Shown: positions 20,316 through 38,074 of the stretch, piece after piece
Layout: each line of letters opens with the position of its first letter
Position numbering within the stretch: the stretch's first letter is position 1
NCBI GenBank assembly: GCA_903828145.1
Contig: CAIKKY010000030.1
Location: forward strand, 49,658 to 113,657
Length of the DNA stretch: 64,000 nt
Source: an uncultured Hyphomicrobiales bacterium
GTDB lineage: Bacteria; Pseudomonadota; Alphaproteobacteria; Rhizobiales; Devosiaceae
Reading direction: 5' to 3'
The notes under the pieces: generated by a model
Database searches by the model: none
What the model saw: only the letters and a program-made list of their open reading frames with translations
What the model was told of the DNA's origin: nothing
Program-made: the position numbers and the translations under genes

Positions 20316-20367
20316 GGAAACCGGGGCAATAGGGCCCCGATTCTGTGCACACGGAGGGTGTCCGCAC

Positions 20368-20550: not shown

Positions 20551-20566
20551 GGCGGGGCCAATCCTC

Positions 20567-21238
20567 ATGCACCATCTGAGACGAATGATCTGGGCCGCCG
20601 TGCTGGCGGGCCTTGTGGCTGGCCTTGTTTCGGCTGGACTGATCGAGTGGCGCATCGCGCCCTTGATCGCCAGTGCCGAAACCTACGAGGAAGCGGCCCC
20701 CCATACCCATGAGGCGGGTGCGCCCGCCCATGATCACGCGGCCATGCCCCAGGGGGCGGCGCGGATTGCGCTCACCGGCCTCTCCACGGTGCTCGCCACC
20801 ATCGGCTTTGCGCTCCTTTTAGGCGGCGCGGCGCTGGTGCTCGACCTGCCGCTCACCCTGCGTACGGGGCCGCTCTGGGGACTCGGTGCTTTTGTTGCCG
20901 TTCAAGTGATGCCGGCGCTGGTTTTGCCGCTGCAATTGCCGGGCATGGCGGCGCTCGATCTGGGCACGCGACAGACGCTCTGGCTTGGCATTGCCACGCT
21001 GGCCGGAGCCGGGCTGCTGCTCGTGGCGAGACTGCGCTCCACCCCCCTGCGGCTTGCTGGGCTGGCGCTGGCGCTCAGCCCGCTGCTCATTCCCGTGGCG
21101 CTGCCCGAGGGCGGGGGGGTTGTCCCCCCCGAACTCGCCAGTGCCTTTGCCGCCAACAGCCTTGCCCTTGGGGCGCTCAGCTTTGCGGTGCTGGGCACGG
21201 CACTTGGCTATTTCAGCACCTGGAGACGCGCGCCATGA
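20567..21238 (+). CDS. cbtA: Cobalt transporter subunit CbtA
   Basis: PLIASAETYE, His patch, P-LVLP--LPG motif and TM helices; follows cbtB. Confidence 0.88.
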   Translation: MHHLRRMIWAAVLAGLVAGLVSAGLIEWRIAPLIASAETYEEAAPHTHEAGAPAHDHAAMPQGAARIALTGLSTVLATIGFALLLGGAALVLDLPLTLRTGPLWGLGAFVAVQVMPALVLPLQLPGMAALDLGTRQTLWLGIATLAGAGLLLVARLRSTPLRLAGLALALSPLLIPVALPEGGGVVPPELASAFAANSLALGALSFAVLGTALGYFSTWRRAP

Positions 21239-22290
21239 CCACCCGGATTCCTGTCACCGTCATCACCGGCTTTCTGGGGGCGGGCAAGACTACGCTGGTC
21301 AGGCATCTGCTCGCCCACGCGGGGGGCAAGCGCATCGCGCTCATCATCAATGAATTTGGCGAAATGGGCGTTGACCGCGACATACTGGCCGGGTGCGGCG
21401 ATGCAACCTGCCGCGAGGAGGATATGATCGAACTGGCCAATGGCTGCATCTGCTGCACCGTGGCCGACGAATTCATCCCCACCATGGCGGCGCTGCTGGC
21501 CCGGCCGGATCGGCCCGACCATATCGTCATCGAAACCTCGGGCCTCGCCTTACCGCAGCCGCTGATCCGCGCGTTCAACTGGCCCGAGATCAAGGCCGAT
21601 GTCACCATCGACGGCGTGGTGACGGTAACCGATGCCGCTGCCCTCGCCGATGGCCGGTTTGCGGCCGATGAGGGGGCCGTTGATGCGGCGCGGCGCGCCG
21701 ACGCGCTGATCGACCACGAGACGCCGCTCGGCGAACTCTTTGCCGATCAGCTGGTCGCGGCCGATCTCGTCATCCTCAACAAGGCCGATCTGGTTGATCC
21801 GGCGGAACTCGATGCCATCGAGGCGGGGCTCCGCCTTTCGCTGCGGCCCGGCACCGGGCTCGTGCGGGCGCGCAATGGCCATGTCGACGCCGCCGCCCTC
21901 CTGGGTCTCGGGCTCGCGACCGAGGACAATCTCGAGGGCCGGGAAAGCCAGCACGAGCTGGAGCATGGCGGGGAAGGCCATGAGCACGATGATTTTGATT
22001 CCTTCACCGTGACGCTGGATGTGACCCCCAGCCGCGAGACGCTGCTGTCCGCCATCGAACAGGCGATCCGCGCCCATGATATCTTGCGGCTCAAAGGCTT
22101 TGCCGCGCTGCCCGGCGCATCGGCCCGGCTCGCGATTCAGGCTGTTGGCCCCCGCGTGAATGCCTATTTCGATCGGCCCTTTGCCGCTGGTGAAGCCCGA
22201 AAAACCGCCTTTGTGGTTATCGGTGAAAGCCCGCTGGACCGCGCGGCGATCACCGCCACCCTGATGGGCGCGCTGAGCGCTGCCGCCTGA
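21235..22290 (+). CDS. cobW: Cobalamin biosynthesis GTPase/metallochaperone CobW
   Basis: TGFLGAGKT, ELANGCICC, IETSGLALP and LRLKG motifs. Confidence 0.95.
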   Translation: MTTRIPVTVITGFLGAGKTTLVRHLLAHAGGKRIALIINEFGEMGVDRDILAGCGDATCREEDMIELANGCICCTVADEFIPTMAALLARPDRPDHIVIETSGLALPQPLIRAFNWPEIKADVTIDGVVTVTDAAALADGRFAADEGAVDAARRADALIDHETPLGELFADQLVAADLVILNKADLVDPAELDAIEAGLRLSLRPGTGLVRARNGHVDAAALLGLGLATEDNLEGRESQHELEHGGEGHEHDDFDSFTVTLDVTPSRETLLSAIEQAIRAHDILRLKGFAALPGASARLAIQAVGPRVNAYFDRPFAAGEARKTAFVVIGESPLDRAAITATLMGALSAAA

Positions 22291-25200
22291 TGCACCTGTT
22301 ACGGGCTGAGGCGGGGGCGCTGCAGAACGAGGGCGAGGCGATCGACCTCGGCCAATCGCCCGCGCCCCTCGTCTTCGCCTCATCCGCCGATAGCGAGCTG
22401 GTGCTGCTCGCGGGGGCAGCAGACCGGGCGGGAGCAGCGGACCTGCGGCTCGCGCACCTCTTGCGGCTGAGCCACAACATGTCGGTAGACCTCTGGCTCG
22501 ATCAGACCGTGCGGCACGCGAGGCTCGTGGTGCTGCGGCTCCTCGGCGGCGCGGCCTATTTCCCTTATGGGGTCGCCGAACTCGATGCACTCTGCCGCAC
22601 GACCGGGGCGCGGCTGGTCCTGCTCCCCGGCGACGCCAACCCGGATCCCATCCTCCGCGACCGCTCAACCATTCCGGGCGACGATTGGGACCGGCTGCTC
22701 GGACTGTTCACCGCCGGTGGACCCGAAAATGCCGATGCGCTGCTGATGGCGTTCAGGGCGCTGGCCGAGGGCAGGCCGGTTGCGGCGCGGCCGGAGGCTT
22801 TTCTGCGCTTTGGCTACTGGCTGCCGGAGACGGGCATCGTCGACACCATGCCCCAGGCTGCCGGACCAAATGTGCCGATCCTGTTTTATCGCGCCCTGAT
22901 CGAGGGGGCCGGCACCGCCACGCTGACAGCGTTGATTACCGATTTGCGGACCGCCGGGCTCAACCCCGTGCCGCTCGTCATTTCGACGCTGAAGGAAAGG
23001 GCCTGCATCCGCTTCGTCAAGGCGGCGTTCGCAGCGCATGCGCCTGCGGCGATCCTCAATCTCACCGGCTTTGCCCTGGGGCTCGACGGGCTCGATGCCG
23101 CGCAGAACCCCTTTGCCGAAACCGATGCGCCGGTGATCCAGCTCCTCCAATCCGGCCGCTCGCGCGCCCTCTGGCAGGTCGACACGCAGGGGCTATCCTC
23201 CAAAGACCTCGCCATGCAGGTCGTGTTGCCCGAACTTGACGGACGGCATGGTATGATCCTCGTGGGCCATAAAGAGGAAGCAAGCTGGCACGCCCGCACC
23301 GAAACCGCGCTCTCGGCCTATGTGCCTGACGCCGAGGGCATCAGCCGTGCGGTTACCTTGGCAGGTAACCTTGCGCGTCTGCGCCAAACGCCGCCCGAGG
23401 CCCGCCGCGTGGCGCTGCTGCTGGCCAATTACCCGGTGCGCGACGGACGGCTCGCCAATGGCGTCGGCTATGATGCGCCCCAATCGACCATCGAAATCAT
23501 CGGTCTGATGCAATCGGCCGGATACGATACGGCTGGTGCCCCGCAATCGGCCGAGGCGCTGATGGCGCGCCTGCTCGCGGGCCCGACCAATGCCAACCCC
23601 GCGCGCTCTGGGGGTATTCCCTTCGCCCTCGCGGACTATCAACGGGCGTTCCGGGGTTTGCCCGGCGCAGTGCAAGCGGCGGTCACAGAACGCTGGGGCC
23701 CCCCGGAAGCCGATCCGTTTGTGCGGGATGCGGCCTTCCACCTGCCGGGTTTTGTGGCGGGCAATCTGGCCATCCTGCTCCAGCCGGCGCGTGGCTACCA
23801 TCTCGATCCGGCAACGAGCTATCACGACCCCGATCTCGTGCCGCCGCACGGCTATCTCGCGGCCTATTTCTGGGTGCGCCATGGTTTTGACGCCATGGCC
23901 CTGATCCACAACGGCAAGCACGGCAATCTCGAATGGCTGCCCGGCAAAGCCGTGGCGCTCGACCGGACGAGCTACCCGGCGGCGCTCTGGGCCGAGCTGC
24001 CGCAGCTCTACCCCTTTATCGTCAATGATCCCGGCGAGGGCACGCAGGCGAAGCGCCGCACCGGAGCGGTGATCATCGACCATCTCGTGCCGCCGCTCAC
24101 CCGCGCTGAACTCTACGGTCCGCTCAAAGACCTTGAAGCCCTGCTCGATGAGTATTTCGCCGCCTCCGGCCTCGACCGCCGCAGGCTCAAAGACATTGAG
24201 CGCCGTATCCTCGATTTCGCCCGCGATGCGCGGCTGGATCGCGACGTGCCGCTCAGCAGCGAAGCGGGGGAGAGCCTCAGGCGTCTCGATACGTTCCTCT
24301 GTGACCTGAAAGAGGCGCAGATCCGCGACGGGCTGCATGTTTTCGGCCAATCGCCCACGGGTCGGCTCAACCGCGACACGCTGGTGGCTCTGGCGCGCGT
24401 GCCGCGCGGGGAAGCGCCGGGCGACGCCTCGCTGATCCGCGCCTTGGCCGATGATCTGAAATTCGCCTTTGATCCCCTCACGGCCGATCTCGGCGCGCGC
24501 TGGCGCGGCCCCGGTGGCTTCAGGCGGGTGGGCGATGTCGTCACCCATCTCGAGGCGATTGCGGCTGACTTGGTGGATGGACGGGCGCCAGAGCCCGACT
24601 GGACCGCTACGCGGGCGGTGCTCGCTACCCTCGAGAGCACCATGCGTCCGCGCCTTGCCGCCTGTGGGCCAAACGAACGGGCGGCGCTGCTGTCGGGGCT
24701 CGATGGTCGCTTCATTGCGCCTGGCCCCTCGGGCGCTCCCTCACGCGGGCGGCTCGATGTGCTGCCCACCGGGCGCAATTTCTATTCGGTCGATAACCGC
24801 GCCATCCCCACTCAGACTGCCTGGGAACTGGGCCGCAAATCGGCTGAAGCGCTGCTCACCCGGCATTTTCAGGATCAGGGCACGCCGCTTGCGGCGCTGG
24901 CGCTTTCGGTCTGGGGCACCTCCACCATGCGTACGGGCGGCGATGATATCGCGCAGGCCCTGGCGCTCATTGGCGCTCGGCCGGTGTGGGACCCGGGTTC
25001 GCTCCGGGTGTCAGGCTATGAAATCATCCCGCTCGCCAAGCTGGGACGCCCCCGCGTTGATGTTACGCTGCGCATTTCCGGCTTTTTCCGCGATGCGTTT
25101 CCGGCCCAGATCGCGCTGTTCGACAAGGCCGTTCGGGCCATTGGTGCGCTCGATGAACCCGAGGGCGACAACCCGATTGCCCACCGCATGCGCATTGAGG

Positions 25201-25958
25201 CGCTGGGTTTGATGGCCAGCGGCCAAACCGCAGCCGAAGCCGCCCTGACCGCGGGCCACCGGATATTCGGCTCGAAGCCCGGGGCCTATGGCGCGGGCCT
25301 CCAGGCCCTCATGGATTCCGGGCAATGGTCGACCAAGGCGGACCTCGGCAATGCGTTTCTCGACTGGGGCCAATATGCCTATGGCGCCCACAGCGCCGGT
25401 GAGCCCATGCGCGACCGCTTTGCCCTGCGGCTGAGCCAGATTGATGTGGTGTTACACAATCAGGACAATCGCGAGCACGATCTGCTTGATTCCGATGATT
25501 ACTACCAGTTCGAAGGCGGGCTGGCTGCCGCAGCAGAAGCCGTGTCGGGACGCGCGCCACTCGGCTTCCATATGGATCATTCGCGGCCCGAAAACCCGGT
25601 GGCCCGAACGCTGGAGGAAGAGATTTCGCGGGTCATGCGCGCGCGCGTCGTCAACCCCAAGTGGATCGCCGGTGTGATGCGCCACGGCTATAAGGGGGCC
25701 TTCGAGATCGTCGCGACCGTCGATTACATGCTGGCGTTCGCCGCCACGACGGGTGCGGTGAAGAGCCACCATTTCGACCTCGCCTTTGCCGCCTTCATCG
25801 AAGACGATACAACGCGCGGCTTTCTATTGAGCGCCAACCGGCACGGCCATGACGAACTGCTTGACCGGTTCCGCGAGGCCGAGCGGCGGGGCTTCTGGAC
25901 TCCGCGCACCAATTCCGCCACCACCTGGCTCCATCCGCAACCGGACGACACCCCATGA
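22290..25958 (+). CDS. cobN: Cobaltochelatase subunit CobN
   Basis: 1222 aa; HNGKHGNLEWLPGK, GPSGAPSRG, LPTGRNFY and NPKWIAGVMRHGYKG motifs. Confidence 0.96.
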   Translation: MHLLRAEAGALQNEGEAIDLGQSPAPLVFASSADSELVLLAGAADRAGAADLRLAHLLRLSHNMSVDLWLDQTVRHARLVVLRLLGGAAYFPYGVAELDALCRTTGARLVLLPGDANPDPILRDRSTIPGDDWDRLLGLFTAGGPENADALLMAFRALAEGRPVAARPEAFLRFGYWLPETGIVDTMPQAAGPNVPILFYRALIEGAGTATLTALITDLRTAGLNPVPLVISTLKERACIRFVKAAFAAHAPAAILNLTGFALGLDGLDAAQNPFAETDAPVIQLLQSGRSRALWQVDTQGLSSKDLAMQVVLPELDGRHGMILVGHKEEASWHARTETALSAYVPDAEGISRAVTLAGNLARLRQTPPEARRVALLLANYPVRDGRLANGVGYDAPQSTIEIIGLMQSAGYDTAGAPQSAEALMARLLAGPTNANPARSGGIPFALADYQRAFRGLPGAVQAAVTERWGPPEADPFVRDAAFHLPGFVAGNLAILLQPARGYHLDPATSYHDPDLVPPHGYLAAYFWVRHGFDAMALIHNGKHGNLEWLPGKAVALDRTSYPAALWAELPQLYPFIVNDPGEGTQAKRRTGAVIIDHLVPPLTRAELYGPLKDLEALLDEYFAASGLDRRRLKDIERRILDFARDARLDRDVPLSSEAGESLRRLDTFLCDLKEAQIRDGLHVFGQSPTGRLNRDTLVALARVPRGEAPGDASLIRALADDLKFAFDPLTADLGARWRGPGGFRRVGDVVTHLEAIAADLVDGRAPEPDWTATRAVLATLESTMRPRLAACGPNERAALLSGLDGRFIAPGPSGAPSRGRLDVLPTGRNFYSVDNRAIPTQTAWELGRKSAEALLTRHFQDQGTPLAALALSVWGTSTMRTGGDDIAQALALIGARPVWDPGSLRVSGYEIIPLAKLGRPRVDVTLRISGFFRDAFPAQIALFDKAVRAIGALDEPEGDNPIAHRMRIEALGLMASGQTAAEAALTAGHRIFGSKPGAYGAGLQALMDSGQWSTKADLGNAFLDWGQYAYGAHSAGEPMRDRFALRLSQIDVVLHNQDNREHDLLDSDDYYQFEGGLAAAAEAVSGRAPLGFHMDHSRPENPVARTLEEEISRVMRARVVNPKWIAGVMRHGYKGAFEIVATVDYMLAFAATTGAVKSHHFDLAFAAFIEDDTTRGFLLSANRHGHDELLDRFREAERRGFWTPRTNSATTWLHPQPDDTP

Positions 25959-26658: not shown

Positions 26659-27123
26659 ATGCGATTTTGGATCGTGATCTTCGTCATTGTGCACGTTGCG
26701 GAATTGGCTGGGCTGGCCCTATGCCTTTCGCAGTATCGCTTTGTCGATGCAGGGCTGCTCGCGGACGTTGTCGCGTCGGGCGCGCATGATGCCATCAGCC
26801 TCGCCTCGCAACTTGGCAGGCTGGACCTGCTGACCATAGTGCTCGGCGTTCTTGCCTTGTTGTTGACTGTTGGGACAATTCTGGTGGGGTGGTCGTTTTC
26901 GGCGACGGTAGAGAACCGCGCCAAGAATGAGCTTCGGGAGCTCTTGCCCGGCCTCTTAGCAGAGCAGCTTTCAGCTTCACTTCCAAATGATCTGAGGCAG
27001 CTTTTTGCGAGAGATCCGGGTATCATTGTTGACGCAATGCAGGAAAACCGCGAGATCATCGAGGCGGTTCTGGACGGGAATTCGGACTTCACAACGGAAG
27101 TTAGAGAAAACATTGATCGGTAA
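26659..27123 (+). CDS. Hypothetical protein with two N-terminal TM helices (lower GC)
   Basis: GAGGAGG SD, hydrophobic stretches at aa ~3-25 and ~56-80, 3 bp from the IrrE-like gene. Confidence 0.65.
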   Translation: MRFWIVIFVIVHVAELAGLALCLSQYRFVDAGLLADVVASGAHDAISLASQLGRLDLLTIVLGVLALLLTVGTILVGWSFSATVENRAKNELRELLPGLLAEQLSASLPNDLRQLFARDPGIIVDAMQENREIIEAVLDGNSDFTTEVRENIDR

Positions 27124-27126
27124 GGC

Positions 27127-27630
27127 ATGACTGATTCAGCGCAAGATATCATCAACGCCAATAGTGCGTCTGCGCCCGTCAACGTGGAGCAGATCGCTCG
27201 CGATCTCGGACTTGAGCTCGTCGCTAAGGCGAACCTGCCCGAGCAAATTGCCGGTTTGATCGAAAAGACCAAAAACAGTTACCGGATCAAGGTCAATGCG
27301 GCGGACCACTACTATCGGCGTCGCTTCACGATCGCCCATGAAATCGCGCATTTTCTGTTGCACCGGCATCTTCTTGGGGATGGAGTGGACGACAACCGCG
27401 CTTACCGGGCGACCGATACCGGTCAATACAGGCACTCGGAAATCGCTGCTTCGCACGAAGCGGAAGCGAACAGGCTTGCCGCCCACATTCTGATGCCGCC
27501 AAATTTGGTGAAGCGCGAGTATTCTGAAGCGAATCGGGATGTCGATACGCTGGCGAAGCGCCTCCAGGTGTCGCCTGCGGCCATGAAATATCGGCTGAAA
27601 GCGCTTGGGTACGAGGTTGATCTGACCTAA
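27127..27630 (+). CDS. ImmA/IrrE family metallo-endopeptidase
   Basis: RRRFTIAHEIAHFLLH (HExxH) and EAEANRLAAHILMP motifs. Confidence 0.88.
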   Translation: MTDSAQDIINANSASAPVNVEQIARDLGLELVAKANLPEQIAGLIEKTKNSYRIKVNAADHYYRRRFTIAHEIAHFLLHRHLLGDGVDDNRAYRATDTGQYRHSEIAASHEAEANRLAAHILMPPNLVKREYSEANRDVDTLAKRLQVSPAAMKYRLKALGYEVDLT

Positions 27631-27714: not shown

Positions 27715-28617
27715 TCACACCACCACGATGCCTGAGTGCTTGGCTTTTTCCTCGGGCTCGACATGGATGGTGATCTGCGCGTGTTCCACCGCGTCTTTGA
27801 GCTTCAGCTCAATGCCGTCGCAGATCTGGTGGGCCTGTTCCACGCTCATCGCGCCCGGCACCACGAGGTGGAAATCGATGAACGTCATCTTGCCCGCCTG
27901 CCGCGTGCGGATGTCATGCGCTTCAATGGCGCCCTCGGCATTGGCCGATATGATGTCGCGGATGAGGTGCAGCGTCTTGGGTTCCACCGCCACATCCATC
28001 AGCCCGATCACGCTTTGCTTGATGAGTTCCCACCCCGACCAGAGGATGGTCAGGCCCACAAGCCCCGCGAGAATGGCATCGAGTTGCGGCCAGTTGAGAG
28101 CGGCGGCAAGCAGCACGCCAAGCAGCACGCCGAGCGTCGAGCCGACATCGGTGGCGAGATGTCTGCCATCGGCCTGCAGCGCGGGTGAGCCGGCCTTTTT
28201 GCCCTCCCGCAGCAGCCACCATGACCACCCGGCGTTGGCAATGGACGCGAGCACGCTCACACTGATGCCCCAGGGATCGAGCCGAAAGCCGCGCGGGCTA
28301 ATGAAGCCGTGCCAGGCCTCGTTGAAAATCAGGATCGCTGCGACCACGATGAACACGCCGATGACGACGGCCGAGAAATATTCGGCCTTGTGGTAGCCAT
28401 AGGGCAGGGCCTCGTCAGCCGGGCGGGCCGACAGGCGCACCGCGACCAGCGCGACAAGGGCGGTGACGACATTGACCACGCTTTCAAGCGCATCGGAATA
28501 GAGCGCGATGGAGCCGGTGCTCCAGGCGGCAAAGGCCTTGAGGGCCAGCACGACGACTCCGACGACAAGGCTGCCGTAGGCGACATGGATGGCAATGCGA
28601 CTGGTTTTAGCGCTCAT
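27715..28617 (-). CDS. Cation diffusion facilitator (CDF) transporter
   Basis: SDALESVVN, YGYHKAEY, ADGRHLATD and IDFHLVV..IHVEP motifs. Confidence 0.92.
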   Translation of the reverse strand: MSAKTSRIAIHVAYGSLVVGVVVLALKAFAAWSTGSIALYSDALESVVNVVTALVALVAVRLSARPADEALPYGYHKAEYFSAVVIGVFIVVAAILIFNEAWHGFISPRGFRLDPWGISVSVLASIANAGWSWWLLREGKKAGSPALQADGRHLATDVGSTLGVLLGVLLAAALNWPQLDAILAGLVGLTILWSGWELIKQSVIGLMDVAVEPKTLHLIRDIISANAEGAIEAHDIRTRQAGKMTFIDFHLVVPGAMSVEQAHQICDGIELKLKDAVEHAQITIHVEPEEKAKHSGIVVV

Positions 28618-28784
28618 TGCAGGCCAATAGACCGCGCGAGCGGGCAAGGCAAGCCCGGCGCGCCGCCGGAACCGGGGCTGGCAAGCGCCTCATTTTGCAA
28701 GTGATTTTCATCCGCAGCGGCCCATGGGGCCGGAATCGTTTGACCCCTCATCGGCTGGCCTCTACAACCCGTTGAAAGCGCAGC

Positions 28785-28910
28785 GTTCCTTGACGGACTG
28801 AAAGACATTCCGGTGCGGTTGACCCAAACAGGGGGCCAAGTCCGGAGCTGCCAAGCTGTCGATGAACGCTGCCTCCACTGCAATGGGGCTGGGGAAAACC
28901 CGCCTGCCTG
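28785..28910 (+). ncRNA. Degenerate cobalamin riboswitch-like leader
   Basis: Retains GTTCC..GGA, CCGGTG..TCCGG, GCTGCC, CTGT, CCACTG..GGGAA and CCTGCC in consensus order; lacks AGGGAA, CCCGCAA and AGCCAGGAGA. Confidence 0.55.
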
Positions 28911-28923
28911 CGAAGAGGCTGAA

Positions 28924-30168
28924 ATGGATAAGTCGCTCATCCTGCCCAAGGGCACAGGGGTCATGCTGTGCGGGCACGGCAGCCGCAACCGCCGCGCCGT
29001 TGATGAGTTTTCGGCGCTCGCCGATAAGCTGCGCCAGCGCCTGCCCGGTGTTCCGGTTGAGTATGGCTATCTCGAGTTCGCCAATCCCGTGATTCATGAA
29101 GGGCTGGAAAAGCTCCGCGCCGCCGGGGTCAACCGCATCCTCGCAGTGCCGGGCATGCTGTTTGCCGCCGGGCACGCCAAGAACGATATTCCCTCGGTGC
29201 TCAATACCTGGCAGGCGAGCCACCCCGGGGTTGAAGTCACCTATGGCCGCGAACTGGGCGTCGATCTCAAGATGCTGCGGGCGGCGGGCGACCGGATTGC
29301 CGCAGCAATAGACGGGGCGCAAACCAGCATTCCGCGCACCGAAACCCTGTTGCTCGTCGTCGGCCGGGGCGCATCTGATCCGGACGCGAATTCGAACGTC
29401 GCCAAGGTCATGCGCATGCTGTGGGAAGGCATGGGCTTCGGTTGGGCCGAGGTTGCGTATTCGGGGGTCACGTTCCCGCTCGTCGCCCCCGCGCTCGATC
29501 ATGTGGCGCGGCTGGGGTATGCCCGCGTCATCGTCTTCCCGTATTTCCTGTTTACCGGCGTGCTGGTGAACCGCATTTACGATGCCGTGGCCGAAGCGCG
29601 GGCGAAATACCCCCAGATCGACTTCCTCGATGCGCCCTATCTCAATGACCACCCGATGGTGGTTGAAACCTTTGTCGATCGCCTGCAGGAAATGCTGGTG
29701 GGGCAGAACCTCATGAACTGCGCGATGTGCAAGTATCGCGAGCAGGTTTTGGGCTTCGAGGCCGAAGTGGGCCTCAGGCAGGAAAGCCACCACCACCATG
29801 TCGAAGGCATCGGCGGCGGGCTGGAAAACTGCCCCTGCAAGGGGGATTGCGACGGGTCATGCCGCGACGAAGCCTTCTGCAAGCGCCATAACCTGCCCTG
29901 GACCCCGCTCGCAAGCCATGACCACGGCGCGCATGGTCATGCGCACGGCCACGACCATGGTCCGCACACCCATACTCATGCCCCGGCGCGCCACGCGCTC
30001 CTGAACCCGGCGGCGCCGCTCATCGCACTCGGCACCGGGCCCGATCAGAACAAGGCCGAGCCGCCCGAGCACACGCACCATCCCTACCCCCATGCCGATC
30101 ACCCGCTGGGGCCGAAAACCCTGCCCAAGGTGCCGGGCCGTCGGGCGCGTGAGGAGCGGCAGGGCTGA
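28924..30168 (+). CDS. cbiX: Sirohydrochlorin chelatase CbiX (long form, Fe-S motif, His-rich tail)
   Basis: LCGHGSR, YLEFANP, AAGHAKND, VGRGASDPDANS and MNCAMCKYR motifs. Confidence 0.9.
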   Translation: MDKSLILPKGTGVMLCGHGSRNRRAVDEFSALADKLRQRLPGVPVEYGYLEFANPVIHEGLEKLRAAGVNRILAVPGMLFAAGHAKNDIPSVLNTWQASHPGVEVTYGRELGVDLKMLRAAGDRIAAAIDGAQTSIPRTETLLLVVGRGASDPDANSNVAKVMRMLWEGMGFGWAEVAYSGVTFPLVAPALDHVARLGYARVIVFPYFLFTGVLVNRIYDAVAEARAKYPQIDFLDAPYLNDHPMVVETFVDRLQEMLVGQNLMNCAMCKYREQVLGFEAEVGLRQESHHHHVEGIGGGLENCPCKGDCDGSCRDEAFCKRHNLPWTPLASHDHGAHGHAHGHDHGPHTHTHAPARHALLNPAAPLIALGTGPDQNKAEPPEHTHHPYPHADHPLGPKTLPKVPGRRAREERQG

Positions 30169-31040
30169 TGCTGTTTGACCGCTTCATCGCGGTGGACTGG
30201 TCGGCGGCCAATGCGCCCCGGCTGGGTGCAAACGCCATCTGGATTGCTGAAACCGGCAGATCCAGCTGCAATCTCCCGACGCGTCACGCCGCCATGACCC
30301 ATCTCAGAACGCGACTGCGGGCAGCGCTGGCGGCAGGCGAGCGCCTGCTGGTGGGCTGCGATTTCAGCTTCGGCTTCCCGCTGGGCGCAGCCGAGCGCCT
30401 TGCGGGCTCGGCCGATTGGCGCGCGCTCTGGGCGCGCCTTGCGGCGGCAATCATTGATGGCCCCGATAACAGGTCCAACCGCTTCGATGTGGCCTCGGCG
30501 TTCAACGTCCGGTTGGGCCAGCCGCTGTTCTGGGGGCACCCGGTGGGACGGAGCTACCCGGCGCTCGCGCCACGACGCACGCCAGCCGCCTATGCCGAAA
30601 TAGCGGAAAAACGGTTGGCAGAGCGGCTCACCCGCGCGGCCCAGCCGGTGTGGAAACTCATGGGTGCGGGGTCGGTGGGGAGCCAGACCCTTTTGGGTAT
30701 CGCGCATCTCGAAGCCCTGCGGCAAGATGCCGAGCTGGGCCCGGCCATCGCCGTCTGGCCCTTTGAAACCGGCTTTACCGGCCCATTCGTCCGGCCCATT
30801 ACCCTGTGTGAAATCTACCCGTCGATGTTTCCCCTGGCCGCTGACACAGAGCCGCGCGACCGCGCGCAGGTCGAAGCCGTTGTGGCGGGCTTTGCGGCGC
30901 TCAACCGGGCCGATGCGCTCGGGGCGCTCCTCGCGCCGCCCCTGCTCGATAGCGCGACGACCAACGGCCTGCTCTCCGAAGAAGGCTGGATTGCTGGTGT
31001 CGGGCGTGAGGCCATGCTGGTGGGGAGACTGGCCGCATGA
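30168..31040 (+). CDS. Uncharacterised protein, DUF429/RNase H-like fold inferred
   Basis: FIAVDWS, LVGCDFSFGFP and CEIYP acidic motifs; translationally coupled to cbiX and cobH. Confidence 0.7.
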   Translation: MLFDRFIAVDWSAANAPRLGANAIWIAETGRSSCNLPTRHAAMTHLRTRLRAALAAGERLLVGCDFSFGFPLGAAERLAGSADWRALWARLAAAIIDGPDNRSNRFDVASAFNVRLGQPLFWGHPVGRSYPALAPRRTPAAYAEIAEKRLAERLTRAAQPVWKLMGAGSVGSQTLLGIAHLEALRQDAELGPAIAVWPFETGFTGPFVRPITLCEIYPSMFPLAADTEPRDRAQVEAVVAGFAALNRADALGALLAPPLLDSATTNGLLSEEGWIAGVGREAMLVGRLAA

Positions 31041-31660
31041 GCTATGTCCGCGACCCCGCAGCCATCTACGCCCAAAGCTTTACCACCATCCGGGCCGAAG
31101 CCGATCTCTCGGGTCTGCCTGAGGCGCTTCATCCGCTCGCCATCCGCATGATCCATGCTTCCGGCATGGTCGATCTCGCAGCGGATATCGTCGGCACGGC
31201 CGATCTGCCCCGCGCCGTGGCCGAGGCTGTGGCCGCTGGGGCGCCGGTGTTCTGCGATTGCGCAATGGTGCGGGCGGGGCTCATCACGCGCGATTTGTCC
31301 GCCCATGCCGATCTCCGCGTCACGCTCAATGCTGATGCGGTGCCAGCGCTGGCGGCCCGGCTTGGCACCACCCGCTCCGCTGCGGCTGTCGAGTTGTGGC
31401 GCAATGACCTGGCGGGGGCGGTCGTGGTGATCGGCAATGCCCCTACGGCGCTGTTTCATCTGCTCGAGATGATCGAACAGGGCGCGCCGCGTCCGGCGGC
31501 GATCATTGCCACACCGGTTGGATTTGTCGGTGCGGCGGAAAGCAAGGACTTGCTTGCCGCAGCGCGGCACGCCATTGCCTTCCTCACCGTGCGCGGGCGC
31601 CGGGGCGGCTCGGCCATCGCGGCAGCGGGATTTAACGCGGCCCTGAGAGGATTGTCATGA
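31037..31660 (+). CDS. cobH: Precorrin-8X methylmutase
   Basis: IYAQSF, RMIHASG, TRSAAAV, IGNAPTALF and GFVGAAESK motifs. Confidence 0.96.
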   Translation: MSYVRDPAAIYAQSFTTIRAEADLSGLPEALHPLAIRMIHASGMVDLAADIVGTADLPRAVAEAVAAGAPVFCDCAMVRAGLITRDLSAHADLRVTLNADAVPALAARLGTTRSAAAVELWRNDLAGAVVVIGNAPTALFHLLEMIEQGAPRPAAIIATPVGFVGAAESKDLLAAARHAIAFLTVRGRRGGSAIAAAGFNAALRGLS

Positions 31661-33015
31661 CGGCCTGGCTCACCCTGATCGGCATTGGCGAAGACGGGCT
31701 GGCGGGCCTGCCTGCTGCGCATCGCCGGCTGGTGGACGATGCCTCGGTCGTCATTGGCGCGGCGCGGGTTCTCGCGGCCCTGCCGCCGGCTGTGGCCCCG
31801 GCGCGGCCGCGCGCTGCCGATGTGCCGGGCGATTTCATTGCCCAGCAGAGTTTCGATGCCATTGCCCGGGCCCTGGCCGGGGAAACGGCCGTGGTGAGAG
31901 CTGAAGTGCCGCTGCCTGAACCGCAGCGCCGCATGGCATGGGAGCCCGGGCTCGAGCGCATGATCGCGCAGCTTATGGACCTGCGTGATACACCCACGGT
32001 GGTGCTCGCCTCGGGCGATCCGATGTGGTTCGGCATGGGCGCTACGCTCACCCGCACGCTGTTGCCGTCTGAATTTGCGGTCCTGCCGGCCCCCAGCGCC
32101 TTCCAGCATGCGGCGGCGCGACTTCATTGGCCCCTGCAATCGATCGATTGCCTGTCGCTGCATGGGCGGCCCGTGGAAATGCTGCATCCGGCGCTGCAGC
32201 CGAACAATCGGATTCTGGCGCTGACGTCGGACCGCACGACGATTGATCTCGTGCTCGAACTCCTGGTCGATCGCGGCTATGGGCAAAGCCAGGTCACCGT
32301 GCTCGAAAATCTGGGTGGATCGGACGAGCGGATCACCGAGGGGCTGGCCCTTGGCTTTGAGTCCGGCGCCGTTGGCGACCTTTATGTGCTGGCGATTGAT
32401 TGCGTGGCCGAATTTGGCGCGCGCCTCCGCCCCACCGTTCCGGGCCTGCCCGACGACGCCTTTGTGACCGATGGGCAGCTGACCAAGCGTGAAGTGCGCG
32501 CCATGACGCTCGCTCGGCTCGCACCGTTTCCTGGCGCTGTGCTGTGGGATGTTGGGGCCGGTTCGGGCTCCATTGGCATTGAGTGGATGCGGTCTGCCCG
32601 CGGTGCCCATGCCATTGCCTTTGAACGCGAGGGTGAGCGCTTGCAGAATATTGCCGTCAACGCCGCTGCGCTCGGTGTACCCCATCTTGAAATCGTGCCC
32701 GGATCGGCGCCCGAAAGCTTTGGCAAGCGGGCTCCGCCCGACGCGATTTTCATCGGCGGCGACGTGGCCAATGATCTGCTGTTTGATGCCTGCTGGACGG
32801 CGCTGAAGCCGGGCGGACAGCTGGTGGCCAATGCCGTCACCGTCGATGGCGAACGGGCGCTCTATGATTGGCAGGAGCAACTGGGCGGTGACATCACCCG
32901 CATTGAAACCTCGATGCTTGATCGGGTGGGCGGCCGCCGCGTGCTGCGCCCGCGCATGGCGGTCACCCAATGGTCTGTCGTCAAACTGCCCCATGGCGAG
33001 GCGGCGGAACAATGA
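31657..33015 (+). CDS. cobL: Precorrin-6Y C5,15-methyltransferase (CbiE/CbiT bifunctional)
   Basis: IGIGEDG, LASGDPMWFG, SLHGRP, GQLTKREVRA and WDVGAGSGS motifs. Confidence 0.93.
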   Translation: MTAWLTLIGIGEDGLAGLPAAHRRLVDDASVVIGAARVLAALPPAVAPARPRAADVPGDFIAQQSFDAIARALAGETAVVRAEVPLPEPQRRMAWEPGLERMIAQLMDLRDTPTVVLASGDPMWFGMGATLTRTLLPSEFAVLPAPSAFQHAAARLHWPLQSIDCLSLHGRPVEMLHPALQPNNRILALTSDRTTIDLVLELLVDRGYGQSQVTVLENLGGSDERITEGLALGFESGAVGDLYVLAIDCVAEFGARLRPTVPGLPDDAFVTDGQLTKREVRAMTLARLAPFPGAVLWDVGAGSGSIGIEWMRSARGAHAIAFEREGERLQNIAVNAAALGVPHLEIVPGSAPESFGKRAPPDAIFIGGDVANDLLFDACWTALKPGGQLVANAVTVDGERALYDWQEQLGGDITRIETSMLDRVGGRRVLRPRMAVTQWSVVKLPHGEAAEQ

Positions 33016-33722
33016 GCGGCACGCTGTTTCTTGTGGGTGTCGGCCCCGGTGATCCCGATCTCATCACGCTGAAGGCGGCGCGGCTCCTTGCCATGGTGCC
33101 GGTCATTGCCTACCCACAGACCGGCGAGGGTGCCGCGCTGGCGCGGGAGATTGCGGCACCGCACCTCAACCCCGCCGCGCTCCATATCCCCGTTGATCTG
33201 CCGATGAGCACGGACCGCGCACCGGCGCAGCAGGCCTATGATGGCGCCGCGATGCGCATCCTGGCCCAGCTTGCGGCGGGGCGTGATGTGGCCTGGCTCA
33301 CCGAAGGCGACCCGCTGTTTTACGGCTCGGCCATGTATCTGGTTGCCCGCATTGCGGCCTCGGCCCCGGTGCGGGTCATCCCCGGCATTACGGCGCTCAC
33401 GGCGGCGGCGGCGGCCATCAATCGGCCGCTGGCGGCCCGTAACGAAACGCTCAAAGTGCTGCCCGCCCCGCTCGATGACGAAACGCTGCGGCGCGAATTG
33501 GCCGATGCTCCGGCTGTCGCCATCATCAAGGTCGGTCGGCATTTCGACCGTATCAGGGCCCTCCTCGAAACAACCGGCCATGCCGCCTCAGCCATGGTGG
33601 TGGAACACGCCACGACCCCGCGCCAGCGCATCACGCCGTTGCGGGCCTTTGCGCATGACGAGCGGCCGTATTTTTCAACGATTCTCTGTTATCGGGGCGC
33701 GGAGGCCTGGGCCACGCCATGA
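33012..33722 (+). CDS. cobI: Precorrin-2 C20-methyltransferase
   Basis: GVGPGDPDLITLKA, EGDPLFYGS and PGIT motifs. Confidence 0.94.
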   Translation: MSGTLFLVGVGPGDPDLITLKAARLLAMVPVIAYPQTGEGAALAREIAAPHLNPAALHIPVDLPMSTDRAPAQQAYDGAAMRILAQLAAGRDVAWLTEGDPLFYGSAMYLVARIAASAPVRVIPGITALTAAAAAINRPLAARNETLKVLPAPLDDETLRRELADAPAVAIIKVGRHFDRIRALLETTGHAASAMVVEHATTPRQRITPLRAFAHDERPYFSTILCYRGAEAWATP

Positions 33723-35467
33723 TCGCCTTGATCGTCTTTTTTGCCGGCCAGGGCGAGACTGTGGCCGAGCGCATCGCCCTGAGCCTCAAGGGTGAACTGG
33801 TCCGTTGTGGCCCCGGCTTTGCCGACGCCGCCACCCTGCTGCCCGCAGCCTTCAGCGCGGGCCGAACCATTATCGGGGTTGCCGCCTCCGGCATTCTCAT
33901 CCGGCTGCTTGCGCCCGTGCTGTCGAACAAGGCCCTTGAGCCAGCCGTGCTCGCCGTGTCGATTGACGGGGCCTCAATTGTGCCGCTGTTGGGCGGTCAT
34001 CGCGGCGCGAACCATCTGGCGCGCACTATCGCGGCGCTGACGGGCGGACACGCCGCCATCACCACGGCCTCCGACATCCGCTTTGGCGGCGCGCTCGATG
34101 AACCGCCTGCGGGCTACGCCCTCTCCAATCGCGAGGCGGCGCGCGCGGCCATGGCAGCCGCGCTTCAGGGCGAAGCCCTAAAGCTGACAGGCGATGCACC
34201 GTTCCTTGCGGCCTGGGGCTATCCCATCGACCCCGAAGGCACAATTGCGGTGCGTGTCACCGATCAGGCGGTCGCGGGGCTCGCCTATCATGAAAAGCGG
34301 CTGGTCGCCGGGCTGGGTTGCGAACGCGGTGCCTCGGCCGACGAGGTGATCGGGCTGGTTACCGCGACGCTGGCCGGGGCCGGGCTCGCCCCCCAGGGCC
34401 TGGCCGCCCTCGCCTCCATCGATATCAAGGCCGATGAGCCGGCGCTCCTCGCCGCCGCGCGCCATTTCAAGGTGCCGCTGCGGCTGTTCTCCGCTGCCGA
34501 TCTGGCGGGCGAAACGGTTCCCACCCCATCACACTATGTGGCCGACACCGTGGGTACACCCTCGGTGGCCGAAGCGGCGGCGCTGAAGGCCGGGCCGCTC
34601 CTCGTCGAAAAGCGGAAATCGGCCCGTGCCACCTGCGCCATTTCGCGTGGGTCCTGGCCCTTCGACGCTGAAACCTTCGGGCATGCTCCCGGTCTCGTGC
34701 ATCTCGTCGGGCTCGGGCCCGGCGCTCCTGCCGAGCGGACCGGGTCGGCCATTGCCGCATTGCAGACAAGCAGCGATTGGGTCGGCTACGGCCTCTATCT
34801 CGATCTCGCAGCGGACCTGCAGCAGGGCCAGACCGAACACCGCTTTGCCCTGGGCGAAGAAGAAGTGCGGGTTCGCCATGCGCTCGAACTCGCCGCAACC
34901 GGCAAGACCGTTGCGCTCCTTTGTTCGGGCGATTCCCAGATCTATGCCATGGCGGCGCTGGCCTATGAACTGCTCTCGGCTGACGGCGCCCGGGCCCTGA
35001 GCCACCGCGCGCAGCGGGTGAGCATCGCCACGCATCCAGGCATTTCCGCCTTTCAGGCGGCGTCGGCGGCGGCCGGGGCGCTCATTGGCCATGATTTCTG
35101 CTGTATCTCGCTCTCTGACCTTCTGACCCCGCGCGAGGATATTGAACAGCGGCTCACCGCCGCCGCGACCGGCGATTTCGTCACCGCGTTCTACAACCCG
35201 CGTTCGGGGCGACGACTTGATCTGCTGGATCGCGCCACGGCGATTTTCCGCGCGCACCGGCCCGCCACCTGTCCGGTGATCGTGGCCAAAAGCCTCGGGC
35301 GCAAGGAGCAGCAGGTGCGCGTCCTGCCGCTTTCGGCGTTCGATCCCGCTGAAGTCGATATGCTCACCATTGTGCTCATCGGCTCATCCACCTCAAAGAG
35401 CTTCGACAAGGCCGGCCAGACCGTCGCCTTCACCCCCCGTGGCTATGCCAAAAAGGCCAGCTTATGA
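33719..35467 (+). CDS. cobJ: CbiG-CobJ fusion (cobalt-precorrin-5A hydrolase-like plus precorrin-3B C17-methyltransferase)
   Basis: N-terminal LLGGHRGAN, ITTASD, GLGCERG and SVAEAAAL; C-terminal VGLGPG, SGDSQIY, ISLSDLLTP and FYNPRS. Confidence 0.92.
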   Translation: MIALIVFFAGQGETVAERIALSLKGELVRCGPGFADAATLLPAAFSAGRTIIGVAASGILIRLLAPVLSNKALEPAVLAVSIDGASIVPLLGGHRGANHLARTIAALTGGHAAITTASDIRFGGALDEPPAGYALSNREAARAAMAAALQGEALKLTGDAPFLAAWGYPIDPEGTIAVRVTDQAVAGLAYHEKRLVAGLGCERGASADEVIGLVTATLAGAGLAPQGLAALASIDIKADEPALLAAARHFKVPLRLFSAADLAGETVPTPSHYVADTVGTPSVAEAAALKAGPLLVEKRKSARATCAISRGSWPFDAETFGHAPGLVHLVGLGPGAPAERTGSAIAALQTSSDWVGYGLYLDLAADLQQGQTEHRFALGEEEVRVRHALELAATGKTVALLCSGDSQIYAMAALAYELLSADGARALSHRAQRVSIATHPGISAFQAASAAAGALIGHDFCCISLSDLLTPREDIEQRLTAAATGDFVTAFYNPRSGRRLDLLDRATAIFRAHRPATCPVIVAKSLGRKEQQVRVLPLSAFDPAEVDMLTIVLIGSSTSKSFDKAGQTVAFTPRGYAKKASL

Positions 35468-36246
35468 CCGTCTATTTCATTGGTGCCGGTCCCGGCGCGC
35501 CGGACCTCATCACGCTGCGCGGCCACAGGCTGATCGAGCGCTGCCCGGTCTGCCTGTATGCCGGGTCGCTGGTGCCCGCTGAGATCGTTGCCGTTGCGCC
35601 CCAAGGGGCTCTGGTGCGCGACACCGCGCCCATGACCCTCGATGAGATCATCGCCGACATCACCGCCGCCCATCAGCGGGGGGAGGATGTCGCGCGGGTC
35701 CATTCGGGCGATCCCTCGATCTATGGGGCGGTGGCCGAGCAGATGCGGCGGCTCGATGCGCTCGACATTCCTTACGAGGTGGTGCCCGGCGTGCCCGCCT
35801 TCGCGGCGGCAGCGGCGGTGCTCAATGCCGAACTGACCCTGCCCGATGTGGCCCAGACCATCATCCTCACCCGCACGAGCGGCAAAGCGACGCCCATGCC
35901 GCCGGGCGAAAGCCTTGAAGAGCTGGGGGCGAGCAAAGCGACGCTCTGCATTCACCTCTCCATCCGCAACCTGGCCTATGTCGAGGAGGCGCTGACCCCG
36001 CATTATGGCGCCGATTGCCCGGTGGCGATTGTCTATCGGGCGAGCTGGCCCGATCAAACGGTGCTGCACACCACGCTCGGCGACATGCGGGTGAAGGTGC
36101 GCGAGGAAAAGATCACGCGCACGGCGCTGGTCATGGTGGGGCGGGTTTTTGGCGAAACCGCCTTCCGCGAGTCGCGTCTTTACGATGCTGATTTTGCCCA
36201 TGTGCTGCGCAACAAGGGCAAGAAAAAGAGCCGCGCCGAGGGCTAG
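35464..36246 (+). CDS. cobM: Precorrin-4 C11-methyltransferase
   Basis: GAGPGAPDLIT, YAGSLV, RVHSGDPSIYG and RASWPDQ motifs. Confidence 0.96.
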   Translation: MTVYFIGAGPGAPDLITLRGHRLIERCPVCLYAGSLVPAEIVAVAPQGALVRDTAPMTLDEIIADITAAHQRGEDVARVHSGDPSIYGAVAEQMRRLDALDIPYEVVPGVPAFAAAAAVLNAELTLPDVAQTIILTRTSGKATPMPPGESLEELGASKATLCIHLSIRNLAYVEEALTPHYGADCPVAIVYRASWPDQTVLHTTLGDMRVKVREEKITRTALVMVGRVFGETAFRESRLYDADFAHVLRNKGKKKSRAEG

Positions 36247-36247
36247 G

Positions 36248-36979
36248 TCACGGCCGGTCAAGCCGCAGCGCGGCAATCACCTGGCCGAGGGTCGGGGCCT
36301 CGGGTGCCGGCAGGAGCCTTGGCCGGTCGATCATCACCACGGCGATGCCGAGTTCCGCCGCCGCGTCCAGCTTGGCAGCCGTCTGCACACCGCCCGAATT
36401 CTTTGAGACGAGATGGCTGATGCCCTGATGCGTCATCAGGTCGAGTTCAGCGCTGAGGAAATAGGGCGGCCGCGACAGGATTGAAATCGCATTGATCGGC
36501 AGACGGTGCGTTAACGGCTCGATGGTGCGCACCACGAACGAGCAATCGGTGCGGGCAAAGAAGCTTTCAATCTCGGTGTGCCCGGTGGTCAGCAGCGCCC
36601 GTGCCCCGGCAGGCAGAAGCGAGGCGGCTTCGGCCCCGTCGGTGGCGCGAATCCAGTCGATCCCCGGCGGCTCCTGCCATTCCGGGCGGCTGTAGCGCAC
36701 CAGCCGGATTCCCGTGGCCTCTGAGGCCAAAACGGCATTGGTCTTGATCCGCGCCGCATAAGGATGCGTGGCATCGACGATGCGTTCAATGCGCGTGCGG
36801 ATGAGATAGGTCGTGAGCCCCTCGATGCCGCCAAAGCCGCCGACGCGGGTTTCCACCACGGGCATGAGCGGCGTTGAGGTGACGCCTGCCAGTGAGCTGA
36901 TGACTGCGTGGCCCATGGCGTCGAGCCGCTCCGCGAGGAGCCGCGCTTCTTCGGTGCCGCCGAGGATCAGGATCCGCAT
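36248..36979 (-). CDS. cobK: Precorrin-6A reductase
   Basis: ILGGTEEA, GGFGG, VDATHPYA and VSKNSGG motifs. Confidence 0.94.
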   Translation of the reverse strand: MRILILGGTEEARLLAERLDAMGHAVISSLAGVTSTPLMPVVETRVGGFGGIEGLTTYLIRTRIERIVDATHPYAARIKTNAVLASEATGIRLVRYSRPEWQEPPGIDWIRATDGAEAASLLPAGARALLTTGHTEIESFFARTDCSFVVRTIEPLTHRLPINAISILSRPPYFLSAELDLMTHQGISHLVSKNSGGVQTAAKLDAAAELGIAVVMIDRPRLLPAPEAPTLGQVIAALRLDRP

Positions 36980-36982
36980 GGC

Positions 36983-38074
36983 CTAGCTGCTTTCCCCGAT
37001 AACGACGCCCGCCCGGTCGACCACCAGAATATCGACCTGCACCTTATCGCCGACCATGGCCGCAGCGCGGGTCCGCGCCAGCGCGGCAATGGGGGGCGCC
37101 ATCGCGATTCCCGCCGCTGAGGCGAGCGCGAGGGCCGCATTGGCCGACAGCGCACCGCGCACCCCATCGGCAAGCCGCGTATCACCGCCGAGGCGCTCGA
37201 CCAGTTGCCCCAGCGCATCGAGATCAACCTGTGAGCGGCCTGAATGGAGATCCATGGCCCCCTGCGCCAGCTTGCTGAGCTTGCCGAACCCCCCGGCAAT
37301 GGTCACGCGCGGCACCGGGTGCGCCTTGAGATATTTGAGCAGTCCGCCCACGAAATCGCCCATATCGATATAGGATTCCATCGGCAGCCCGAGCCGCCGC
37401 ATCGCCGCCTGTTCAGAGAGGTCGCCGGTGGAGCCCACGACATGATCGAGCCCCATGGCGCGGGCTACATCGACGCCGCGATGGATCGAGTGAATCCAGG
37501 CCGAGCAGGAATACGGCACCACAATGCCGGTCGTGCCGAGGATCGACAGGCCACCGACAATGCCAAGGCGCGGGTTCCAGGTTTTTTCCGCAAGCCGCGC
37601 GCCGTCCCGCACGGCCAGGGTCAGCGCGAAATCGGGCGGTACGCCATGGGCTGCCGCGAGCTGGTCCACCACCTGCCGCATCATCTGGCGCGGCACCGGG
37701 TTGATGGCCGGTTCGCCCACCGCGATGGGCAGGCCGGGCCGTGTCACCATGCCCACGCCTTCGCCGGCCTGGAAGGTGAGGCCCGACCCGGGCGGGGCGG
37801 GAGCGATTCGCGCAAGAACCAGCGCCCCGTGCGTCACATCGGGGTCGTCACCAGCATCCTTGATAATTCCCGCTTCGGCCCAGCCCGACCCCTGCCGTTC
37901 CTCGGCCAAGGCAAAGTCCACGGCCTGTCCGCCGGGCAGGGTGATGGTCACCGGATCGGGAAAGCCGTCACCCAAAAGGGCCGAGAGCGCGGCGCGCGTG
38001 GCGGCAGTGGCGCAGGCGCCCGTGGTCCAGCCCCGCCTTAGCACCTTGCTCTCAGCCGAAAAATCATCGCTCAT
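36983..38074 (-). CDS. cbiD: Cobalt-precorrin-5B C1-methyltransferase
   Basis: LRRGWTTGACA, KDAGDDPDVTHG, AINPVPR and GGLSILGTTG motifs. Confidence 0.96.
   Translation of the reverse strand: MSDDFSAESKVLRRGWTTGACATAATRAALSALLGDGFPDPVTITLPGGQAVDFALAEERQGSGWAEAGIIKDAGDDPDVTHGALVLARIAPAPPGSGLTFQAGEGVGMVTRPGLPIAVGEPAINPVPRQMMRQVVDQLAAAHGVPPDFALTLAVRDGARLAEKTWNPRLGIVGGLSILGTTGIVVPYSCSAWIHSIHRGVDVARAMGLDHVVGSTGDLSEQAAMRRLGLPMESYIDMGDFVGGLLKYLKAHPVPRVTIAGGFGKLSKLAQGAMDLHSGRSQVDLDALGQLVERLGGDTRLADGVRGALSANAALALASAAGIAMAPPIAALARTRAAAMVGDKVQVDILVVDRAGVVIGESS

Follow-up and report, generated by a model that had tools for sequence, protein, structure and literature searches.

A cbiX leader RNA related to the 5' domain of the cobalamin riboswitch is conserved in Devosia and other Rhizobiales

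Results

The cbiX locus and its gene cluster

The window (the whole stretch of 64,000 nt that was analysed, from an uncultured member of the Devosiaceae) carries a cob cluster in which cbiX and a gene for a cation-efflux protein diverge from a common intergenic gap. The features that frame this gap are the following.

20121-20329, + strand: intact canonical cobalamin riboswitch (RF00174, 129 bits), before cbtA-cobW-cobN-cobO
20345-25958 and 28924-38074: cob cluster with mixed pathway markers
27715-28617, - strand: CDF-family cation-efflux gene (Cation_efflux and ZT_dimer), divergent from cbiX across the same gap
28618-28923: gap of 306 nt between the divergent genes, holding the cbiX leader
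28924-30168, + strand: cbiX, long form, 414 aa (Pfam PF01903, 3.1e-54; translation)

Translation and Pfam matches revealed two CbiX domains, a cysteine cluster and a histidine-rich tail in the long-form CbiX. Its gene is the first of a ring-synthesis operon that continues with a gene for a 290-aa protein, cobH, a gene for a cobL-like methylase and cobI, and in its distal part with a cbiG-cobJ fusion and cobM. Next in the cluster, on the opposite strand, come cbiD and a precorrin-6A reductase gene, followed by cobB, cobQ and cbiB. CbiX, CbiG and CbiD are markers of the cobalt-early type of pathway. Markers of this kind (long CbiX, the CbiG-CobJ fusion, CbiD) were found in one cluster with markers of late cobalt insertion (cobW and a 1222-aa cobN), and cobG was not seen among the scanned genes.

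The gene for the 290-aa protein (30168-31040, + strand) is translationally coupled, lies between cbiX and cobH, and is without a Pfam domain. Its only match, at 147.8 bits and thus below the cut-off, is to the "unknown domain" part of NCBIfam NF011066, a MobB/unknown fusion; the product may be an accessory of ring synthesis that has so far escaped recognition. An insertion in the cob cluster between cobO and the CDF gene carries a stand-alone gene for an ImmA/IrrE-type peptidase (Peptidase_M78, 26659-27630, + strand), with a small ORF upstream of it. The CDF-cbiX neighbourhood was found again in at least some Devosia relatives, and co-regulation of the CDF gene with cobalt chelation is possible.

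The intact canonical riboswitch lies 8.5 kb upstream of the cbiX leader. The second canonical cobalamin riboswitch of the genome (112.6 bits) is located on another contig (C7:185216-185403) next to rplS, where it precedes a HupE/UreJ-family gene, a predicted cobalt transporter. In this genome, the two canonical switches govern cobalt uptake and cobW-cobN-cobO, and the motif described below precedes the genes for chelation and ring synthesis. A preliminary description of the window had read the cbiX leader either as an eroded second cobalamin riboswitch, which would leave the operon free from B12 feedback, or as a variant with another ligand or role.

A three-way junction is conserved in cbiX leaders

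Leaders of cbiX orthologs were collected within the genus and in further families of the order. Aligning the leaders of relatives, as the preliminary description had proposed, revealed a common core just upstream of the ribosome-binding site, and a covariance model derived from such leaders (R1) was used in the searches reported here. RNAalifold, run on 26 genus-level leaders, folded this core into a three-way junction with compensatory changes in 13 of its 21 pairs. The motif, of about 80 nt, is formed by a closing stem (P1), a hairpin (P2), a UGARA-rich joining strand and a long arm (P3), whose consensus runs from a YCCGG/CCGGR stem through a UGC/AAnn internal loop, a stem of four pairs and a GA bulge to a CCC-AAnnn-GGG tip. 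In the window, its parts are placed as follows.

28777-28858, + strand: cbiX-leader RNA, match to covariance model R1 (85.4 bits, E 2.7e-22)
28780-28784, + strand: 5' strand of P1, GCAGC, paired in the consensus structure with GCUGC at 28847-28851
28785-28798, + strand: P2 hairpin, GUUC...G-GAC, with covariation in 4 of 4 pairs
28799-28808, + strand: joining strand J2/3, UGAAAGACAU, with UG-R-R-A conserved according to column frequencies
28809-28846, + strand: P3 arm, with UCCGG/CCGGA stem, UGC and AAnn internal loop, GGUU/GGCC stem, GA bulge and CCC-AAACA-GGG tip
28847-28851, + strand: 3' strand of P1, GCUGC, closing the junction

The score of this match is among the best of the family. Compensatory changes were detected in all five pairs of P1; in J2/3, the conservation of the UGRRA columns is partly imposed by the search pattern. 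Leader DNA and R1 match each occur once in the genome, with no second locus found for either, and a repeat or mobile element was ruled out on this ground.

The fold was also supported by sequences that had not been used for training. Among 36 such sequences, identified by model search alone, 97.3% of the cells were standard pairs and double-sided changes were present in 19 of 21 pairs, compared to 37-49% paired cells and 4-10 double-changed pairs in slid-partner controls on the same set. For a set of 80 sequences from named genomes the corresponding figures were 98.2% and 15 of 21 compensatory pairs, all of these pairing counts resting on alignments fitted to the covariance model. The GGUGCG, GACCCAA and CUGRRA columns are invariant by construction in the named set, where they belonged to the search pattern, and nearly, though not fully, invariant in the order-level set. 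As G-U pairs, which make up about 8% of the cells, would become A-C mismatches on the minus strand, the RNA is encoded on the + strand, in the direction of cbiX.

The motif is tied to B12 ring-synthesis genes across many families

Of 151 genomes sampled from the order, 54 had an R1 match, part of these matches being 5' halves of canonical switches, compared to only 3 of 150 other families of the class. When named genomes were scanned with a sequence pattern, the motif was detected in many Devosia and in Rhizobium, Ciceribacter, Peteryoungia, Aurantimonas, Aureimonas, Jiella, Hoeflea, Nitratireductor and Aestuariivirga, as well as in members of Rhodobiaceae, Parvibaculaceae and Tepidamorphaceae. 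More than 100 genomes, from many genera and families, keep the truncated architecture. The top motif scores and the highest cbiX identities to the window (82-84%) belong to Devosia, and a Devosia (order Hyphomicrobiales) is therefore the probable source of the window.

Among 116 copies of the motif, 112 had enough flanking sequence for the gene context to be classified, and B12 ring-synthesis genes lie downstream of every one of these. The motif is followed directly by cbiX in 58 copies, by a small ORF for a histidine-rich protein with signal peptide and transmembrane segment (DUF6732) and then cbiX in 23, and by a spacer of about 170-750 nt and then cbiX in 18, so that cbiX comes first, or behind a short spacer or small ORF, in 99 of 112. 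A cobE/CbiG_C-like gene (then cobA in Devosia) follows in 9 further copies and cobH comes first in 4, two of them behind the small histidine-rich ORF. Seen from the gene, 46 of 48 close cbiX orthologs (at least 60% identity) in the order sample have a model match just upstream, including 4 weak ones of 20-25 bits obtained with filters off; of the other two leaders, one is cut at a contig end and one, from an AT-rich genome, is motif-like by eye only. No canonical switch precedes a close cbiX ortholog among the leaders examined, and the idea that the window leader decayed recently from an intact switch at this position finds no counterpart in these relatives.

The motif corresponds to the 5' half of the cobalamin riboswitch

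R1 matches the 5' halves of 17 genuine RF00174 switches with 25-50 bits and block-for-block alignment, and the full-length RF00174 switches of the order sample that coincide with lower-scoring R1 matches themselves score 97-139 bits. On the window's own switch, R1 gave 15.7 bits over 20134-20224, the second-best match in 9.3 kb. Since a model built from cbiX leaders also finds the 5' halves of genuine switches, homology of the motif to the 5' domain of the cobalamin riboswitch is established. The correspondence between the two RNAs is given below.

First hairpin: present in genuine switches; present in the cbiX motif
Joining strand: UGAAA-AGGGAA in genuine switches; UGAAA-nnnAn in the cbiX motif
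P4-type arm: present in genuine switches; present in the cbiX motif, with identical consensus
After the arm: GCUGC-CCCCGCA in genuine switches; GCUGC in the cbiX motif

Like the alphaproteobacterial form of RF00174, with its extended P4 arm, the motif has a first hairpin, a UGAAA strand and a 5'-UTR site before B12 genes. In the alignment to genuine switches, P2 is the counterpart of their first hairpin, and P3 is homologous to P4 together with its alphaproteobacterial extension, the same inserted hairpin being present at about 20185-20203 in the window's intact switch. Both RNAs share, position for position, a GGUGCGG...GACCCAA...GGGG...CCAAnnCC arm followed by GCUGC. Compared with the 17 genuine switches and with the window's own, the motif thus retains the first hairpin and the P4/L4 module (GGUGC ... 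AAnnCC).

The two differ beyond this point, and the motif is about 80 nt long whereas RF00174 spans about 200 nt. J2/3 stands in place of the UGAAAAGGGAA of genuine switches; the GGGAA is replaced by a variable nnnAn, and the GGG partner of the B12 box is thereby lost. In genuine switches GCUGC runs on into the C-rich L5 loop GCUGCCCCCGCA, whereas in the motif it closes the junction, and everything 3' of it (L5, P6 with GCCACUG, and the B12 box) is missing in every lineage. A fuzzy search of 220 nt downstream for the B12 box, a AGCCAGGAGACCUGCC-like 3' strand pairing with the GGG of GGGAA, was negative in 80 of 80 copies of the motif and positive in both genuine switches present in those loci. 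In solved cobalamin switches J6/3 and J3/4 take part in building the ligand pocket, regulatory switching falls to the L5-L13 kissing loop, and L4 forms a T-loop that steers global folding (PMC6158498). Judged by these assignments, the motif thus retains the folding module without the known ligand-reading parts.

In agreement with these losses, no match to the cobalamin clan (RF00174, CL00101) was detected by Rfam cmscan at E ≤ 10 with permissive filters on 28600-28960, where a weak or truncated one had been expected, and the best-scoring relative likewise had no Rfam match at E ≤ 10. None of the Rfam 15 families matches the motif at E ≤ 10 in these two representatives, or at gathering score in the loci of 37 (20 + 17) motif-bearing relatives. 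At gathering scores (31.5 bits for RF00174), cmscan of the whole window and of 57 related loci yielded only genuine switches and tRNAs.

The preliminary description had based its reading on a series of short blocks, all of which are present where it placed them: GTTCC at 28785, CCGGTG at 28810, TCCGG at 28841 and GCTGCC at 28847, followed by CTGT at 28856, CCACTG at 28875, GGGAA at 28892 and CCTGCC at 28903. The near match of an internal loop (ACCCAAACAGGG at 28822, ACCCAACAGGG at 20190 in the intact switch) and the losses that it listed (AGACAT for AGGGAA, no C-rich CCCCGCAA loop after GCUGCC, no AGCCAGGAGA box) were likewise recovered. As remnants of a B12 element, the 5' blocks withstood comparison with shuffled sequence and the 3' blocks did not: the 5' half of the leader aligned locally to the 5' half of the intact switch with a score of 23 (shuffles 13.4 ± 2.2; reached by 2 of 1000), and the 3' halves with a score of 15 (shuffles 14.4 ± 2.2; reached by 385 of 1000). 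The 3' blocks CTGT, CCACTG..GGGAA and CCTGCC, at chance level, do not occur in the cbiX leaders of the nearest relatives, and CCACTG, GGGAA and CCTGCC fall in a lineage-specific insert, the loop of the hairpin that pairs with the ribosome-binding site.

Promoter, ribosome-binding site and a competing helix

The motif is flanked by elements that could govern its transcription and the access of ribosomes to cbiX.

28740-28768, + strand: putative promoter, TTGACC (28740-28745), 17-nt spacer, TACAAC (28763-28768)
28856-28872, + strand: strand of an alternative long-range helix, 28856-28862 with 28790-28796 and 28864-28872 with 28780-28788
28873-28917, + strand: hairpin at the ribosome-binding site, CUC (28873-28875) pairing with GAG of the Shine-Dalgarno (SD) sequence GAGG (28915-28918)

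Relatives within the genus share the TTGACC-N17-(C)TACAA arrangement, and other families have CTAnnn boxes at the same distance. This conservation suggests a transcript start about 5-10 nt upstream of P1, predicted for the window at about 28771-28776. A strict sigma-70 scan called no promoter at the cbiX leader, and no intrinsic terminator was called downstream of the motif.

The alternative helix (28780-28796 with 28856-28872) comprises 16 bp and excludes P1 and P2. The minimum-free-energy fold was calculated at -65.7 kcal/mol versus -50.0 kcal/mol with the motif enforced, so that the motif fold of the window copy, weaker by 15.7 kcal/mol, would form only kinetically or with help. In long-form Devosia relatives a weaker GAACUCUGC version pairs with the 5' strand of P1/P2. 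Pairing of this 5' strand with the downstream leader had a mean z of -0.5, only Devosia nearing -2 and other families not being significant. In the computed folds the competing helix of the window looks like an aptamer/anti-aptamer pair, of the kind that riboswitch leaders have; it is significant within Devosia only, and no general coupling between sensor and ribosome-binding site emerged from the calculations.

The ribosome-binding site lies directly 3' of P1 in short Devosia forms and elsewhere in a downstream hairpin, which in relatives is a plain GCCUCUU...AAGAGGC hairpin or carries other inserts. Its predicted unpaired probability was 0.24 versus 0.37 with a shuffled linker and was lower in 47 of 58 leaders, a trend rather than a test given that the sequences are related. 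When 69 leaders were folded by partition function, the SD sequence was unpaired with a probability of 0.27 under an enforced motif versus 0.25 under a penalised P1, in no consistent direction; classical switching between a P1 strand and an anti-SD strand was rejected on this basis. Complementarity of the anti-SD strand to the motif was not significant either (mean z +0.27). The loop inserts of this hairpin vary in length and sequence among Devosia lineages, and several end in CGCCUGCC-like strings.

Discussion

A description of the motif was found neither in Rfam 15 nor in the searchable open literature, and apparently it has gone undescribed until now. Two general features of riboswitches, a conserved and covarying fold in the 5' UTR on the strand of the gene and a link to genes of a single pathway, were found here. 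From its conservation, fold, homology, strand and gene association, the motif is a regulatory RNA under selection and probably a new riboswitch-like variant class, not a pseudo-riboswitch. With moderate confidence, we take the window leader to be an intact member of a conserved RNA class absent from Rfam, which would act in cis as a ligand-sensing leader of the cbiX operon. The second reading of the preliminary description, a variant with another ligand or role, is a candidate that fits all of this evidence.

The ancestor of this leader was the 5' domain of the alphaproteobacterial cobalamin riboswitch, with its first hairpin, UGAAA strand and P4 plus extension, and a new stem, GCAGC/GCUGC, closes the RNA exactly where the canonical one continues to L5, P6 and the B12 box. 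Located at the predicted extreme 5' end of the cbiX-operon mRNA, the riboswitch-like leader would set translation initiation of the cobalt-chelation and corrin-ring operon, and the ribosome-binding site, directly after P1 or within the downstream hairpin, would be the point of control. The ligand pocket would differ from the canonical one, since the canonical ligand-contacting parts are absent. The ligand would most likely be a corrinoid or tetrapyrrole of the B12 pathway and its effect repression, as we infer from the ancestry, the end-product type of gene context and a ribosome-binding site closed by default; with J6/3 and L5-L13 missing (PMC6158498), the choice of a corrinoid is a guess based on descent and on the genes downstream. 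More tentatively, the motif may represent a new riboswitch class in which a halved and re-closed cobalamin aptamer senses either Co2+ or an intermediate of the B12 pathway at the cobalt-insertion branch, such as sirohydrochlorin, cobalt-sirohydrochlorin or a later corrinoid precursor. If this were the case, B12 synthesis in Hyphomicrobiales would be under two-input RNA control, with canonical switches on cobalt uptake and the motif on chelation and ring synthesis.

Some of the same evidence could be accommodated by a structured leader that binds no small molecule, that is, a protein site or a 5' stabiliser or folding module recruited from a former B12 switch, which would determine how long the cbiX-operon mRNA lasts or how strongly it is translated at the basal level. 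The placement of the motif at the far 5' end of the predicted mRNA agrees with such a role, as do a computed coupling of sensor to ribosome-binding site that is not consistent, a ribosome-binding site sequestered in whichever state of the motif, and the nature of the retained P4-type module, whose L4 T-loop is a folding element and not a ligand contact (PMC6158498). Nevertheless, the unpaired nucleotides of the joining strand, internal loop and bulge are near-invariant across many families, as is typical of ligand pockets or tertiary contacts, no candidate gene for a partner protein accompanies the motif consistently, and the strict tie to one pathway resembles riboswitch regulons, so we consider a ligand-free leader rather unlikely. 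Less likely still is a metal sensor in which Co2+ (or Ni2+) binding would switch cbiX and the histidine-rich DUF6732 gene on or off in response to the cobalt available, and would so gate the branch point of cobalt insertion into sirohydrochlorin. Its appeal lies in the first products of these operons, which handle metal (long CbiX with its histidine-rich tail, small histidine-rich DUF6732 membrane proteins), in the CDF cation-efflux pump gene that diverges from cbiX in the window, and in the fact that B12 feedback on cobalt uptake is already provided by canonical switches, so that a second, different input would be sensible. However, the motif is unlike the NiCo (czcD) riboswitch or any metal sensor in Rfam, its ancestor was a corrinoid aptamer, and some copies precede cobE/cobA or cobH with no metal-handling gene first.

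The decay of a second cobalamin riboswitch into a non-functional relic, the first reading of the preliminary description, would account for the lack of an Rfam cobalamin match, for the missing ligand-contacting half and for a competing helix that in the window beats the motif fold. It is nonetheless very improbable: an architecture kept order-wide, in more than 100 genomes, with compensatory substitutions in 19 of 21 pairs contradicts an eroded element that would release the operon from control, the window copy scores near the top of the family, and the supposed 3' remnants are at chance level. The spread over many families also speaks against an artefact of recent common descent in the alignments. 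We give even less credit to the idea that the conserved element is no cbiX RNA at all, being instead a DNA operator, an N-terminal coding extension or a minus-strand leader of the divergent CDF gene. It is true that a frame is open from GTG at 28813 into cbiX and that the intergenic region is common to both genes. Against this stand the compensatory pair changes, length changes that are not multiples of three, short-form relatives with a strong GGAGG and an ATG only about 10 nt past P1, G-U pairs that suit the + strand only, and an orientation and distance to cbiX that are fixed in unrelated contexts.

Among known systems, natural loss of peripheral domains with retention of the L4-type T-loop module has been described for the class II (env8-type) and the AdoCbl-variant RF01689 switches (PMC6158498). 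These keep the core of the four-way junction, J6/3 and the L5-L13 kissing loop, by which the pocket is formed and read (PMC6158498), whereas the cbiX motif is without all of them, and their models gave no score at E ≤ 10 on the window leader or the best relative. A working analogy for a second, different input to the B12 pathway would be the HMP-PP riboswitch (thiS motif), a compact sensor of a coenzyme intermediate that acts on biosynthesis genes beside the end-product (TPP) riboswitch (PMC6478431). It is unrelated in sequence and fold, its aptamer is embedded in a terminator and its ligand was shown by experiment, whereas the cbiX motif is known from sequence. The NiCo (czcD) riboswitch is an RNA sensor tied to cobalt homeostasis, and a CDF gene adjoins the motif of the window; yet the NiCo model had no match at E ≤ 10 on either strand of 28600-28960, and it is cbiX, not the CDF gene, that the motif faces and with which it is conserved.

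When riboswitch variants acquire a new ligand, usually a few nucleotides of the pocket are altered and the parent architecture persists. In the present case one of the largest aptamers has lost an entire domain, and the remaining half is under strong structural selection in many families. If the motif binds a ligand, it would be an example of a new sensor arising by domain truncation, would reveal the signal that gates cobalt insertion at the sirohaem/B12 branch, and would enlarge the set of compact regulatory parts for Rhizobiales that produce B12. Annotation based on Rfam misses the motif entirely, so that the corrin-ring operons of these bacteria appear unregulated, which they probably are not.

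Two gene associations of the motif outside the window deserve description. The DUF6732 proteins found between motif and cbiX in many families are 55-80 aa long and combine a signal peptide, an AHPGH...GHxHSHW histidine motif and a single transmembrane helix with a basic tail; they resemble a metal-handling partner that is co-regulated with CbiX. Several Devosia genomes have a copy of the motif upstream of a cobE/CbiG_C-like gene, near which lies a gene for a cobA-type SUMT; the genome of the window has the cbiX copy only and none before a cobE/CbiG_C-like gene. The cobE-type Devosia leader reads GCGAACCUGCCUCUU, reminiscent of the 3' end of the B12 box.
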